IMG/VR virus record: IMGVR_UViG_3300048074_000119
Origin: a virus
Direction: 5' to 3' (one strand)
Length of the DNA: 64,000 nucleotides
In this document: one piece after another, positions 18,655-24,879 of the stretch
Numbering within the stretch: position 1 is the first letter of the stretch
How the letters are laid out: each line of letters begins with the position of its first letter
Made by a program: the position numbers and the translations under genes
The notes under the pieces: generated by a model
What the model saw: only the letters and a program-made list of their open reading frames with translations
Told to the model about the DNA's origin: nothing
Database searches by the model: none

Positions 18655-19160
18655 GCGAGGTGCGTCTGTGGCGCTTCCACCTGCCGTCCGGCCGTGGTGA
18701 GGGGCTGGAAAGGTTCGAGTGGGGGACCTTCGTCATCGGCAGCGACGGCTACTTCAGCTGCGTCACCGACTGGGGAAACTACGCCTTCCGGTGGACATCC
18801 CCGGGCTGCGACATCCGGAAGTTCTTGCAGGGCGCGGTCAAGGATCCGGACTACTTCGTGAAGAAGTTGTCCTCCGACGAGTACGACGGAGAGGAGAGCG
18901 CGAAGGCCATCTTGGAGATGGCGAAGGAGCAGGGGTTCAGCGGCGCCACCCTGCGCGCCCTCAAGAACGAGATGTCGGACGTGGAGAACAGCCGCGATGG
19001 CTTCGCGGTGTGGTGGGCGACGAGCGCGCTGGCCCGTCGCTTGGAAGGCGTCTCGGAGTGCTTCACGATGCGCCGCAACCGGAGCTGCGTGTCCATGGTG
19101 GAGCGGCTGATGCCTCGGCTGGCGCCGCTCCTCCAGCAGAGCCTCGAGCAGGACCCATGA
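18651..19160 (+). CDS. conserved phage hypothetical protein
   Basis: TDWGNYAFRW..FL...DYF..KL pattern. Confidence 0.55.
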   Translation: MSEVRLWRFHLPSGRGEGLERFEWGTFVIGSDGYFSCVTDWGNYAFRWTSPGCDIRKFLQGAVKDPDYFVKKLSSDEYDGEESAKAILEMAKEQGFSGATLRALKNEMSDVENSRDGFAVWWATSALARRLEGVSECFTMRRNRSCVSMVERLMPRLAPLLQQSLEQDP

Positions 19161-20155
19161 GCTACGCGCGGTTCCTCGAGCAGGCCCCGACCGAACAGTG
19201 GTTCCCCTGGCTGGGCGGGCGCCAGCTGCGCCGTGGGGTGGTCGGGTGGAAGATCGAGGGCCCGCTGCCCCTGGAGCACAGCTGGTGCGTCTTCGCGACC
19301 AAGACGAACGGCCGAGCGCTGTTCTTGCGGTCGGTGCCGGAGGACGACGTCTTCCAGAGCCCGGAGCAGTGGCAGCCCCACCTGGTCGACGTCCAGCCGG
19401 GCTACTTGGCGGGCGATCGGTTCGTGCCGTCGTCGAGGACAGGCTTCAACCCGTGGAAGTTCGAGCGGATCGGGACGGAGACCGAGCGGGTGCACCTGGT
19501 GGAGCCGGGCTTGGACCGGTTCGAGCACATCCAGGTGGGCCGCATCCACGAGCACGGTCCCCTCGTCTACATGGGGCGCGTGATGCCCCTGGGGCCTGAG
19601 GGAGAGGCCAACCAGGTCTTCCTGGACGGTGGAGGCCTGGCGGGGCTCCGGGCGGTCAAGGGGGTCGTCCCGGCGCTCGAGTTGGCCTTCCGGATGGAGG
19701 TCTTCCAGAAGGAGGAGGCGGAGCGTCGGCGCCTCGAGATCGAGCGGCAGGAGCGGGAGGCCGAGGAGCGGCGGCGCTTGGAGGAGCGGCGGGCCGAGCT
19801 GATGCGGACGATCGGCACGGCCGAGAGCCGCCGGGAGCTCGCGACGACCGACTTCCGGGCGGCCGCCCAGGCGGCGTTGCGGGTCGGAGGCGCCGAGTAC
19901 CTGGACCACCGCGCGTCGGCGCGTCGGGGGGAGATGGTGGTCCGCTACCGGGTGCAGCAGCATCGCCTCGAGTGCGTGTGCATCGCCCGGACCCTCCAGA
20001 TCGTGGACGCGGGCATCTGCCTGACGTCGCACGGGGGCGACGGGTTCGACGCAGGGGAGAAGGGCGACACGATGCTCACCCTGGAATCGATCCCGACGGT
20101 GGTCCGCCAGGCCATCCGGGAGAACAAGCTGGTGGTGTACCGAAGGGTTGGGTGA
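19157..20155 (+). CDS. hypothetical protein, possible partner of the Ubl system
   Basis: Directly upstream of JAB gene; LECVC and DAGICL cysteines. Confidence 0.6.
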   Translation: MSYARFLEQAPTEQWFPWLGGRQLRRGVVGWKIEGPLPLEHSWCVFATKTNGRALFLRSVPEDDVFQSPEQWQPHLVDVQPGYLAGDRFVPSSRTGFNPWKFERIGTETERVHLVEPGLDRFEHIQVGRIHEHGPLVYMGRVMPLGPEGEANQVFLDGGGLAGLRAVKGVVPALELAFRMEVFQKEEAERRRLEIERQEREAEERRRLEERRAELMRTIGTAESRRELATTDFRAAAQAALRVGGAEYLDHRASARRGEMVVRYRVQQHRLECVCIARTLQIVDAGICLTSHGGDGFDAGEKGDTMLTLESIPTVVRQAIRENKLVVYRRVG

Positions 20156-20160
20156 GGACA

Positions 20161-20829
20161 ATGCTCGAGGCTGCGATCGTGCTGGGGACGTCAGGCGAGG
20201 TGCTCTACCACCACACGCCCAAGGACCGTTCGGTGGGCTACCTGCCGGAGGAGCGGCTCTGGGACGAGCTGCTCAAGCACCACGCGGCGGGGAACCTCGC
20301 GGGCGTGGCGCACTCCCACCCCGGCTACGGACCGCCGATGCCGTCGTCGACCGACCTCACGACCTTCCGCAACGTGGAGTCGGTGTACGGGCTCGGGCGG
20401 CCGGTCGACTGGTGGATCATGTCGATCAGCGACAGTCGGGTCTGCCGGGTCAAGATGTTCGCCTTGACGGAGGGGGACCACCGCCAGAAGCGCCAAGGGA
20501 TGCAGGTGGTCGACTACCTGGTCACCGAGCCTCAGGACGACCTTCCTTGGCGGATCCTGCTCTTGGCGCTCTCGACCCCGGACCAGCTGTCGATGGCGTG
20601 CGCGCGCCTGGTGGACAGCTACGAGACCGCGATCCCGGCGAGGGTGGGGCCGCAGGCGCGCCTCGGGCTGCTCTGCGAGGGGCTGGACCGCTTGCGCGGA
20701 GTTGGCATCATCGACCTCTTGCGGATGGCGATTCGTGTGCCTGCGGTGCGTCCGCACTTGTACGCGACGCAGTCGGCGGGCATCGTGAAGTACATGAAGT
20801 ACGCGCTCGACTGTCGAGGTGACACGTGA
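20161..20829 (+). CDS. JAB/MPN+ metalloprotease
   Basis: EAAIV...HSHP...PSSTD (E-HxH-x7-S-x2-D JAMM motif). Confidence 0.85.
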   Translation: MLEAAIVLGTSGEVLYHHTPKDRSVGYLPEERLWDELLKHHAAGNLAGVAHSHPGYGPPMPSSTDLTTFRNVESVYGLGRPVDWWIMSISDSRVCRVKMFALTEGDHRQKRQGMQVVDYLVTEPQDDLPWRILLLALSTPDQLSMACARLVDSYETAIPARVGPQARLGLLCEGLDRLRGVGIIDLLRMAIRVPAVRPHLYATQSAGIVKYMKYALDCRGDT

Positions 20830-21335
20830 CGACGCAGTTCCCACCTGCGGGGCTCGTGCTGGTGTGGTGGCAGGGCTTCATCGTGGCCGTGAGCCGCCGC
20901 AACAACGAGCAGGATCTCAACCTCCCCGGAGGGAAGCTCGAGCCGCACGAGATCGCGGTCTACGGAGCGGCGCGCGAACTCGAGGAGGAGACGGGGCTCG
21001 AGATCGACCCGGACCAGCTCCAACTCGTCTACCAGCGGGAGACGGGCACGCCCTCCGGGCGGATGGCGTACGTCTACTCGGTTGTCCTCAGCACCCTCGC
21101 CCCGCCGAGGCTCCTCGCCGAGACGGGGCTGACGGCGAAGTGGGTCCGGCCGGAGAGGCTCCTGCGTAATGAGTGCTCGTTCCGGGACTTCAACGCGGCG
21201 ATGTTCGCGAGCCTCGGCCTCTTGGTCGAGACCCCGGAGCAAGACCGGATCGAGGAACTGGAGCGGCGCATGTCGATCAGCGAGACACGGCTCCGCGGGA
21301 TCGAGGTCTACACGGGGCTGAGGGTGCTCCCATGA
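20826..21335 (+). CDS. Nudix hydrolase
   Basis: Nudix box GGKLEPHE...AARELEEETGL. Confidence 0.9.
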   Translation: MTTQFPPAGLVLVWWQGFIVAVSRRNNEQDLNLPGGKLEPHEIAVYGAARELEEETGLEIDPDQLQLVYQRETGTPSGRMAYVYSVVLSTLAPPRLLAETGLTAKWVRPERLLRNECSFRDFNAAMFASLGLLVETPEQDRIEELERRMSISETRLRGIEVYTGLRVLP

Positions 21336-23480: not shown

Positions 23481-23487
23481 AGGGGCG

Positions 23488-23685
23488 ATGGGGAGGCCCA
23501 AGAAGGACACGGTGCAGGTCACCCTCACCGTCAGCGTCTCCGAAGAGACGGCGGCTCGTGCGAAGGCGCTGGCCGCGACGCTGTCGAAGCGGGCGTGCGG
23601 CATCAGGGTGTCGATGGCGGCGGTACTCCGACTCGCGTTGGAGCGCGGCCTCAGCGAGCTCGAGACCCAGGAGACGGTGGAATGA
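23488..23685 (+). CDS. ribbon-helix-helix-like regulator
   Basis: MGRPKK, beta strand followed by two helices. Confidence 0.6.
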   Translation: MGRPKKDTVQVTLTVSVSEETAARAKALAATLSKRACGIRVSMAAVLRLALERGLSELETQETVE

Positions 23686-24110
23686 GCTACCTCATCGATG
23701 GTCTGCGGTACGAACGATTCAACCTTGCCGCACAGGCAGTGCGTGTGTCGGTGCACTTTCGCGATGACACGCCAGACGGCCCATGGGTGGTCTCACAAGC
23801 CCCATACCTGAATTTTTCGCGTGAGTTTCTGCCGCCCGATCCATGCCGCAACGGCCGCGCCGTGCCATGGCCGAAACGTGTTGCGGACGCGCGTCGGTAC
23901 TTCTTCTTGGACGCGGCTCGGGCAGCGGTCGCGACCTACAGCTCTCAGACGATCTTGGCGGGGATCGAGGAAGGGCGACCCTTCCTCGTCCCCAAGCTCG
24001 AGATCCTGTCCGTTGCAAAGGCGGAAGCTGTCGAGGCGGCGGAGGATGCGGTGAAGCGGTTTCTCGACGCGCGATTCACGATGCCGCACAGCTTTGTCGG
24101 AGGAGCATGA
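23682..24110 (+). CDS. hypothetical protein
   Basis: ATGA overlap. Confidence 0.45.
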   Translation: MSYLIDGLRYERFNLAAQAVRVSVHFRDDTPDGPWVVSQAPYLNFSREFLPPDPCRNGRAVPWPKRVADARRYFFLDAARAAVATYSSQTILAGIEEGRPFLVPKLEILSVAKAEAVEAAEDAVKRFLDARFTMPHSFVGGA

Positions 24111-24295
24111 ACGCCCCCTACGAGGAAGCGCGTCGCCAAGGTGTCACGCGCACGTGCAAGCGCTGTGGCCACCTCGAGTCGGTGCACGACGACATCGATG
24201 GCTGCCAGGTGGTCACTGGCTGCACACCAGGCTCCATGCGGATGGAAGCGTGCGACTGCGAAGAGTTCGTGCCGAAGGAAGAGGCCTCATCATGA
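24107..24295 (+). CDS. small zinc-finger protein
   Basis: CKRCGH...H....C...CDC. Confidence 0.5.
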   Translation: MNAPYEEARRQGVTRTCKRCGHLESVHDDIDGCQVVTGCTPGSMRMEACDCEEFVPKEEASS

Positions 24296-24879
24296 AGAAG
24301 ATGGTCACGATCGTGGGTGCGGGCGCGCTGGGGTCGCACGTGACGCAGTTCCTGCGAAGCACGGACACGGTCCTGCGCGTGATCGACTTCGACCGGGTCG
24401 AGTCGAAGAACACGCAGTCCCAGTTCCTCGGGATGCCGGGGATCGGAAAGCAGAAGGTGTCGGCGCTCGCGCAGCAGATGCACTTCCTGTTCAACCGGCG
24501 GGTGGAGACAGTTCCGCACCGCCTGACGGTCGACAACGAGGATCAGCTCCTGGGTGGATCCGCGCTGGTGATCGACTGCCTGGACAACGGGGCGTCCCGG
24601 CGCATCGTGCAGGGCTACGTGCGCGCGCGGGGCATCCCCTGCCTGCACGGTGGCCTGGCGGCCGATGGCGCGTACGGGCGGGTGGTCTGGGACGAGCGCT
24701 TCCAGATCGACGACGAGCCCGGCGCGGGCGTGGCGACGTGCGAGGACGGCGCGTTCTTGCCGTTCGTGGGCATCGTGTCGGCGTACCTCGCGGAGGCGGC
24801 CCGCCTCTTCTTGGTCCACGAGCAGCGCGTGAACTACGAGATCGCCCCGAGTTTCGTGCGGTCTTCCATCGATCCTTGA
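24292..24879 (+). CDS. ThiF/MoeB family E1-like adenylyltransferase
   Basis: IVGAGALGS, IDFDRVESKN, GKQKV, VIDCLDN..SR motifs. Confidence 0.92.
   Translation: MKKMVTIVGAGALGSHVTQFLRSTDTVLRVIDFDRVESKNTQSQFLGMPGIGKQKVSALAQQMHFLFNRRVETVPHRLTVDNEDQLLGGSALVIDCLDNGASRRIVQGYVRARGIPCLHGGLAADGAYGRVVWDERFQIDDEPGAGVATCEDGAFLPFVGIVSAYLAEAARLFLVHEQRVNYEIAPSFVRSSIDP

Follow-up and report, generated by a model that had tools for sequence, protein, structure and literature searches.

A conserved five-gene module around a ubiquitin-like protein in a phage lineage and in Myxococcota

When a virus encodes a small protein with a ubiquitin-like ending, a ubiquitin-activating type of enzyme and a matching peptidase, does it carry a protein-tagging pathway of its own, and do these genes work together at all? 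The question is raised by the virus record IMGVR_UViG_3300048074_000119 of IMG/VR, of which we analysed a stretch of 64,000 nucleotides (nt), hereafter the window. A first-pass annotation had singled out three genes scattered through one block, encoding a JAMM protease, a protein of 92 amino acids (aa) ending in PFG-T and a ThiF-type activating enzyme (E1), and had proposed a virus-encoded conjugation pathway with a possible part in counter-defence or superinfection exclusion. We find that these three genes, together with those for a vWA protein and for a protein that we call X, very probably constitute one functional module. What we observe is the linkage of the genes, a beta-grasp fold and a processed-type C-terminus in the small protein, and intact catalytic motifs. 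On balance, we favour the explanation that this is a self-contained module for the activation and conjugation of a ubiquitin-like protein (Ubl), operating without a conjugating enzyme (E2) or with a novel carrier, and tied to RNA or tRNA biology.

Order, linkage and distribution of the five genes

The module runs in the order vWA/MIDAS (metal ion-dependent adhesion site) protein, X, JAB, Ubl and E1, and its members in the window are:

13030-14895, plus strand: vWA/MIDAS protein, about 621 aa, first gene of the module (VWA_2, E 4.6e-7)
19157-20155, plus strand: protein X, 332 aa, ending 5 nt before JAB, no family assigned
20161-20829, plus strand: JAB/JAMM metallopeptidase, 222 aa, with a catalytic core of about 120 aa and a phage-specific C-terminal extension
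21929-22207, plus strand: Ubl precursor, 92 aa, ending in ...RPKVPFG-T, with Gly91 followed by one residue, Thr92
24292-24879, plus strand: minimal ThiF/MoeB-type E1, 195 aa (ThiF PF00899, E 5e-22)

The three genes picked out initially, starting at 20161, 21929 and 24292, are real, and they do lie in a single block: between about 10.9 and 26.9 kb one plus-strand gene follows another, and in many places start and stop codons overlap by 4 nt, as judged from codon-position G+C and translations. A compact form of the same set is found in bacteria. An operon in a Myxococcales metagenome-assembled genome (MAG) encodes a vWA protein of 596 aa, an unknown protein of 316 aa, a Prok-JAB protein of 125 aa, a Ubl of 84 aa and a ThiF protein of 194 aa, and the same operon occurs again in an Acidimicrobiales MAG and on two metagenome contigs. 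All five of its proteins are present in the window (tblastn), where the protein encoded from 19157 is the counterpart of the 316-aa protein.

For the phage side we compared eight loci, namely Virus Rctr197k, six IMG/VR contigs of 82-436 kb and one 4.5-kb contig which was binned to a Polyangiaceae MAG and clusters with the phages in the E1 tree. Module members stand in the same order in all eight; six loci hold all five genes and the other two reach contig ends, with JAB homologues in seven of the eight and in the bacterial cassette. The survey of gene neighbourhoods that the first-pass annotation had suggested recovered all five genes in order in 49 of the 92 loci gathered, mostly from Myxococcota. 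Most of the remaining loci are interrupted by contig ends or split, and one myxobacterial genome of 9 Mb has its X gene at a distance of 7.5 Mb from the Ubl-E1 pair.

The genes around the module behave differently from the module itself. Among the 23 genes between 10.8 and 26.9 kb of the window, only the five and one HNH gene have homologues in the related phage loci, the 15 genes interleaved with the module being not shared. Two close relatives of the window (L106 and L107, on contigs of 200 kb and 28 kb) retain the five, and the genes between their Ubl and E1 differ. Because the order is kept while the interleaved genes turn over, the linkage is under selection and not a matter of chance, and the conserved order in phage and bacterial loci bears out the earlier grouping of JAB, Ubl and E1 as one functional set.

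The Ubl was found in 202 of the species genomes that were scanned, mostly Myxococcota with a few Actinomycetota. At E<=1e-3 the vWA family has more than 800 members, many of them on contigs of 200-536 kb, and the protein X family has 805 representatives. In a quick tree, the phage E1s form a clade of their own on a long branch (SH-like approximate likelihood ratio test 95), and the bacterial part broadly tracks taxonomy. The module has been kept for long in the phage lineage and is chromosomal in Myxococcota and some Actinomycetota; across the phylum Myxococcota the bacterial module appears to be vertically inherited. Genes for type II secretion or pili, considered as module neighbours, lie beside two bacterial loci and are not recurrent, and the genes found on a 4.5-kb insert in Myxococcus sp. 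Y35, such as endonuclease V and subtilase, are unrelated.

The proteins of the module

The proposal of a tagging pathway had been made to depend on the 21929 product being a beta-grasp protein, and this is how it is modelled: the AlphaFold prediction (23-sequence alignment) reaches a predicted local distance difference test score (pLDDT) of 92.2, its elements follow the beta-beta-alpha-beta-beta order of that fold, and the protein has a Gly terminus of the processed type. The fold matches are almost all beta-grasp (PB1, UBX, Ras-binding, ubiquitin, ISG15, FAT10, Fubi, SUMO and NLE1-UBL). Foldseek against the PDB gave no match at E<=1e-3 and a profile search against the PDB nothing meaningful; the fold class is supported, a close relative is not.

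The strongest evidence for a Ubl is the sequence pattern at the C-terminus. The motif (R/K)PK(V/T)PFG is invariant in 91 distinct homologues, and what follows its Gly is unconserved, with no further residue in 8 homologues, one in 31, two in 20 and 3-115 in 32. Such a combination of an invariant PFG and a variable tail marks a precursor that is cut at its Gly. The motif closes with Phe-Gly, as Atg8 and Atg12 do, and to our knowledge the characterised sulfur carriers all end in Gly-Gly. The tail pattern matches that of Type II BilA, in which up to nine residues reportedly come after a conserved Gly and are cut off by the JAB peptidase BilC (PMC10557695). We consider it probable that the Ubl is trimmed at its Gly and that the E1 adenylates it.

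In some loci the Ubl frame runs on past the Gly, for about 61 residues in two phages, as a 52-residue acidic tail in another phage and as a 115-residue repeat in one bacterium (L001 5935-6390, L008 ~9998-10430, L012 ~9962-10310 and L025 ~5998-6570); these extended frames may be Ubl fusion precursors. Furthermore, the tails of one Kofleriaceae/Haliangiales group (L039, L041, L051 and L089) share a terminal CCGS motif.

Both enzymes have complete catalytic signatures. In 62 E1 sequences GxGxxG, DxD.V..N..Q, K55, DxxDN, R103 and T149-C150 are invariant, and C150 aligns by motif with what we take to be its equivalent, the crossover-loop Cys of MoeB (Cys187) and ThiF (Cys184). The E1 is without CxxC zinc motifs, rhodanese, UFD or a second adenylation domain. 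Its nearest solved structure is E. coli MoeB (E 2.6e-16), followed by ThiF, Uba4, TcdA, SAE2 and UBA5, with Cap2 distant, and its scores against the NCBIfam ThiF/MoeB equivalogs are all far under the cut-offs. As the first-pass annotation had noted, there are no thiamine or molybdopterin genes nearby, none being present among the ~68 open reading frames (ORFs) of the window that were scanned. Membership of a PRTRC system was rejected, the E1 scoring 30 bits against TIGR03736 (cut-off 144.75) and no ParB being seen near the set. In the JAB, the full set of JAMM residues (E3, H51, H53, S62 and D65) is invariant across homologues, and its profile matches in the PDB are JAB/MPN proteins only (e.g. 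BubCD, RadC, Mov34), all of them sub-threshold.

The vWA protein is 35% identical over its full length to that of the bacterial cassette (tblastn, E 7e-107). It consists of a helical N-terminal region of ~400 residues and a C-terminal vWA domain, in which the MIDAS residues DxSxS...T...D are invariant. The helical region has no Pfam match, and a profile search of the protein against the PDB returned vWA domains only. The nearest language-model clusters are TROVE or DUF2828, at a score (0.85) that counts as a lead only. Pfam TROVE was found neither in eight members of the vWA family, even at E<=10, nor in three cassette-carrying genomes. Aligned by hhalign with six canonical Myxococcota TROVE-vWA proteins, the protein reached 95.7% probability over 277 columns; the helical part alone matched TROVE at E 0.013 over 132 columns in the same register, with a reversed control at 0.33. 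The vWA protein is Ro60-like in build, and homology to TROVE is moderately likely, though not established.

Protein X abuts JAB, as had been remarked, and belongs to no family in four libraries, among them Pfam, PHROG and NCBIfam; a profile search against PDB sequences gave no match and a language-model atlas no usable one. Its model (108 sequences, pLDDT 89.5) has two barrels of the oligonucleotide/oligosaccharide-binding (OB) type at residues ~10-62 and ~76-150, a 45-residue helix, and a C-terminal helix with a four-stranded sheet. This sheet ends in DAGxC288L, where G286 is invariant and Cys288 is kept in at least 90% of the 108 sequences. The N-terminal half resembles S1, CSD and IF1 folds and the double-OB inter-domain of the mycobacterial proteasomal ATPase (Mpa), and the C-terminal domain resembles DsbC-N or PepSY-type domains, all at Z<=4.9.

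The first-pass annotation had recognised no E2 and had suggested that X or the vWA protein might fill that role. Both are indeed conserved members of the set, and the suggestion is not supported for X as an E2: no UBC or RWD chain stands among the fold matches listed (Foldseek PDB, VIA-align wide, ESM Atlas), and hhalign against three Prok-E2_B domains gave a probability of 0.3%. No E2 family was found in any window ORF scanned. Judging from its conservation, Cys288 is a possible carrier site. A complex prediction of E1, Ubl and X, with X as the scored partner, returned a score of 0.01, which is no answer and counts neither way. A second, partial copy of the N-terminal half of X lies at L008 7085-7450, upstream of the full gene, on a 323-kb phage contig.

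tRNA genes and phage setting

Directly after the E1 stop codon follows a non-coding stretch of ~790 nt (24880-25667, plus strand) that is 94% identical in the two close relatives and contains:

25384-25470, plus strand: tRNA-Leu(cag) (ARAGORN, Rfam)
25489-25574, plus strand: tRNA-Leu(gag) (ARAGORN, Rfam)
~25576-25657, plus strand: tRNA-shaped element with a 7-bp acceptor stem and CCA (from the sequence)
25002-25054 and 25278-25330, plus strand: two exact copies of a 53-nt module (repeat search)
25059, 25117 and 25338, plus strand: extra T-arm motifs (T-loop scan)

The segment 24996-25142 folds with a z of -3.3, and Rfam gave no Y RNA match. The T-loop consensus (GGTTCRAnTCC) also occurs at 1075 and 28353 on the plus strand, outside called tRNAs, and all 10 T-loop motifs of the window are on that strand.

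Such genes accompany the module elsewhere. A tRNA array or a tRNA-like gene lies beside it in seven of the eight phage loci, and in at least 10 bacterial loci a tRNA-shaped gene precedes the vWA gene by 50-280 nt in the same orientation. These bacterial genes are homologous and have conserved flanks; their anticodon loops vary or have 6 nt, which argues against a role in decoding. On several myxobacterial chromosomes, the E1 is followed within ~1.1 kb by the first gene of an array of 8-27 tRNA genes. The arrays are dense and cover most amino acids (e.g. L036 7374-11833, L074 7302-10499, L055 7154-8597). The association of the module with tRNA genes is real. Neither it nor the Ro60-like build of the vWA protein figures in the first-pass annotation; the two, and above all the former, keep a sulfur-carrier or RNA-directed role open.

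The window itself is phage DNA of 67% G+C, with genes for a DnaB-type helicase, a dNMP phosphatase, a DNA methyltransferase, a RuvA-like protein and an HNH endonuclease, and with nine tRNA genes (ARAGORN). In the phage collection only one record, the 197-kb Virus Rctr197k, matches it at the nucleotide level; this distant relative is 67% identical across the E1 region. Two adjacent tRNAs above the Rfam tRNA threshold are unusual, one at 32464-32547 with a four-base anticodon (gacc, ARAGORN) and, directly after it, a tRNA-His with the anticodon ATG (32550-32625). An ADP-ribosylglycohydrolase gene lies at 7669-8631, and a PTH2-type peptidyl-tRNA hydrolase, another tRNA-related function, is encoded both in the window and in L107, there at 18936-19229.

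The genes flagged at first are interspersed with several small ones of unknown function and with those for a NUDIX hydrolase and an FHA protein. The FHA gene is:

22540-23223, plus strand: FHA-domain protein, 227 aa (FHA, E 3e-8), between Ubl and E1

This protein has no homologue in the other phage loci and stands outside the conserved five, where it is possibly an accessory or a regulator. In at least 20 bacterial loci FHA proteins adjoin the Ubl-E1 pair, either as an FHA-sigma54 activator directly upstream or as an FHA-GGDEF protein directly downstream. Examples of FHA neighbours are L028 4613-5944 and L016 7289-8236, and Ser/Thr kinases are common nearby. At the other end of the module, a gene for an M16 (insulinase-type) peptidase (11248-12984) ends exactly at the start of the vWA reading frame; it is present in L106, cut at the start of the locus, and L107 begins just before the vWA gene. 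We dropped it as a candidate member, as it is common to the closest relatives only and absent from the more distant phage loci.

Mechanism, rival explanations and known systems

In the mechanism that we propose, the JAB peptidase would remove the residues past the invariant Gly of the Ubl, here a single Thr, and might also reverse conjugates. The MoeB-like E1 would adenylate the exposed Gly carboxylate using ATP, and its Cys150, at the crossover-loop position, would accept the Ubl as a thioester. The Ubl could then pass straight to a target, as in two systems that have no E2, archaeal SAMP/UbaA and Thermus TtuB/TtuC, or could reach it via Cys288 of X as a non-UBC carrier. The vWA/MIDAS protein and the OB barrels of X may recognise the target or an RNA, which would provide the tie to the adjoining tRNA and tRNA-like genes. 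That the end point of the module is protein conjugation seems to us slightly better than an even proposition. Several points weigh against it. The E1 is most like MoeB, ThiF and Uba4, which activate sulfur carriers, and no E2 fold or sequence was detected in X. The fold matches of the Ubl are weak (Foldseek E>=0.06; best Z 5.2, root-mean-square deviation 3.4 over 75 residues), and the match of the JAB to Prok-JAB PF14464 (E 9.5e-4) falls below the Pfam cut-off. The link to tRNA arrays and tRNA-like genes fits tRNA thiolation as well as protein tagging. Lastly, every chemical step is an inference, as is any statement on what the target is and on what the module does during infection.

A rival explanation is that the Ubl is a sulfur carrier, trimmed by JAB, adenylated by E1, converted to a thiocarboxylate via a host sulfur donor and delivering sulfur to RNA, e.g. 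for thiolation of the adjoining tRNAs or of tRNA-like RNAs held by the vWA protein and X, with tagging absent or a side reaction. TtuB/TtuC, Urm1/Uba4, CysO/Mec+ and QbsE/QbsD would be its parallels, and in the Qbs and CysO pathways the precursors of the sulfur carriers are likewise trimmed by JAB peptidases. An E1 that is nearest to those of sulfur relays and has no E2-binding domain, the failure to find an E2, the RNA genes beside seven of eight phage loci and many bacterial ones, and an X that pairs OB-type barrels typical of RNA binders with a near-invariant Cys all agree with it. However, the Ubl ends in Phe-Gly and not in Gly-Gly, and the E1 has no rhodanese domain and none of the Zn CxxC motifs of MoeB and ThiF. 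Neither the cassette nor the ~68 window ORFs contain a PP-loop thiouridylase, a rhodanese, a cysteine desulfurase, ThiG, MoaE or CysM, and no known sulfur relay has room for a MIDAS vWA protein. We regard a sulfur carrier as unlikely.

Still less probable, in our view, is a role in conflict as in Bil or CBASS, with the phage tagging proteins of host defence or of competitor phages, for counter-defence or superinfection exclusion, and the bacterial copies serving anti-phage defence. Known bacterial operons with E1, JAB and Ubl (Bil, Cap2/Cap3, Bub) do act in phage defence (PMC10557695, PMC11601596), one bacterial locus (L002) sits among genes for immunity proteins and a MORC-type ATPase, and the phage and bacterial versions are diverged sister groups. 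The likeness to Bil and CBASS drawn by the first-pass annotation does not hold up, however, when the locus is compared with defence models: four of the five proteins match no PADLOC model, and the E1 matches only the generic E1 domain of Cap2-type E1-E2 models. There is no gene for an E2, a CD-NTase or an effector. The bacterial copies occur widely across Myxococcota, their E1 tree follows taxonomy, and their neighbours are housekeeping or regulatory genes (ribosomal proteins, Obg, FHA regulators), which is atypical of mobile defence islands. Finally, the genes could be unrelated neighbours, a stand-alone ThiF-type enzyme and a stand-alone metallopeptidase next to a small protein that ends in Gly by chance. 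In the window 15 unrelated genes over ~12 kb do separate them, but co-occurrence and order are kept across phage and bacterial loci despite a complete turnover of the intervening genes, which makes this explanation extremely improbable.

We tentatively consider a more specific possibility, less likely than not, that the module is a new class of Ubl pathway dedicated to an RNA-protein particle. In it, tRNA-like RNAs would be held by the Ro60-like MIDAS protein and the OB/Cys protein, and the particle would either receive the Ubl itself or direct where it is attached. Were this so, protein tagging or Ubl-borne sulfur would be wired to the surveillance of tRNA or other RNA, and the huge-phage copy would manage the phage's own tRNA arrays or resist host attack on tRNA. 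More generally, should the module tag proteins, phages would carry a Ubl conjugation pathway and bacteria would have a mechanism that lacks an E2 or uses a new carrier; should it carry sulfur, it would point to a new route of RNA modification. Bacterial Ubl/E1/JAB sets are currently seen as sulfur carriers or as anti-phage defence (Bil, CBASS, Bub), and this module, with no E2 and two new obligatory partners, fits neither. It is found in a phylum, Myxococcota, that is known for complex signalling, and a huge-phage lineage has kept an intact and self-sufficient copy while the surrounding genes turned over.

We found no description of the five-gene combination in the open-access literature, and vWA is not mentioned in Iyer 2006. 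The vWA-MoxR FtsH ternary system (Kaur et al. 2020, PMC7159879) likewise encodes a vWA protein with E1, JAB and Ubl, but it includes a MoxR AAA+ ATPase, FtsH, a Ubl-E2 fusion, a RING E3 and caspase-like effectors, none of which is present here. Bil (BilABCD) and Bub (PMC10557695, PMC11601596) share with the module the presence of Ubl, JAB and E1 in one operon and a Gly followed by a few unconserved residues that JAB removes. They differ in having a UBC-type E2 and large two-domain or fused E1s, to which Bub adds a DUF6527 protease, and neither contains a vWA protein, which their papers do not mention, or protein X.

On the RNA side, the vWA protein recalls Ro60/Rsr, also of ~600 aa with a helical N-terminus and a MIDAS vWA domain, encoded beside tRNA-like RNA genes and occurring in phage, but in contrast to these it has no Pfam TROVE match. 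Examples are bacterial Rsr-YrlA and the Ro60 of Thermus phage phiLo (PMC12135203, PMC4201824); no Ubl, E1 or JAB partner is mentioned for the Ro60 systems described, a Ubl or E1 being absent from the phiLo paper, and a preprint on Asgard viruses lists Ro60 and ThiF genes in the genomes separately and unlinked.

Closest are the archaeal SAMP1-3/UbaA/HvJAMM1 and the Thermus TtuB/TtuC/JAMM systems, which have a small beta-grasp modifier with a C-terminal Gly, a JAMM peptidase and a single-domain MoeB-like E1 with a crossover-loop Cys, and no recognisable E2. SAMP and TtuB have a Gly-Gly terminus and also serve as sulfur carriers, for which the partner enzymes are known, whereas the Ubl described here ends in Phe-Gly with a variable tail, the module adds the vWA/MIDAS protein and X, and its E1 is shorter (195 aa) and without Zn motifs. 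Both systems have a documented link to tRNA through thiolation, and it is these E2-less systems that are the nearest working analogues of the module.

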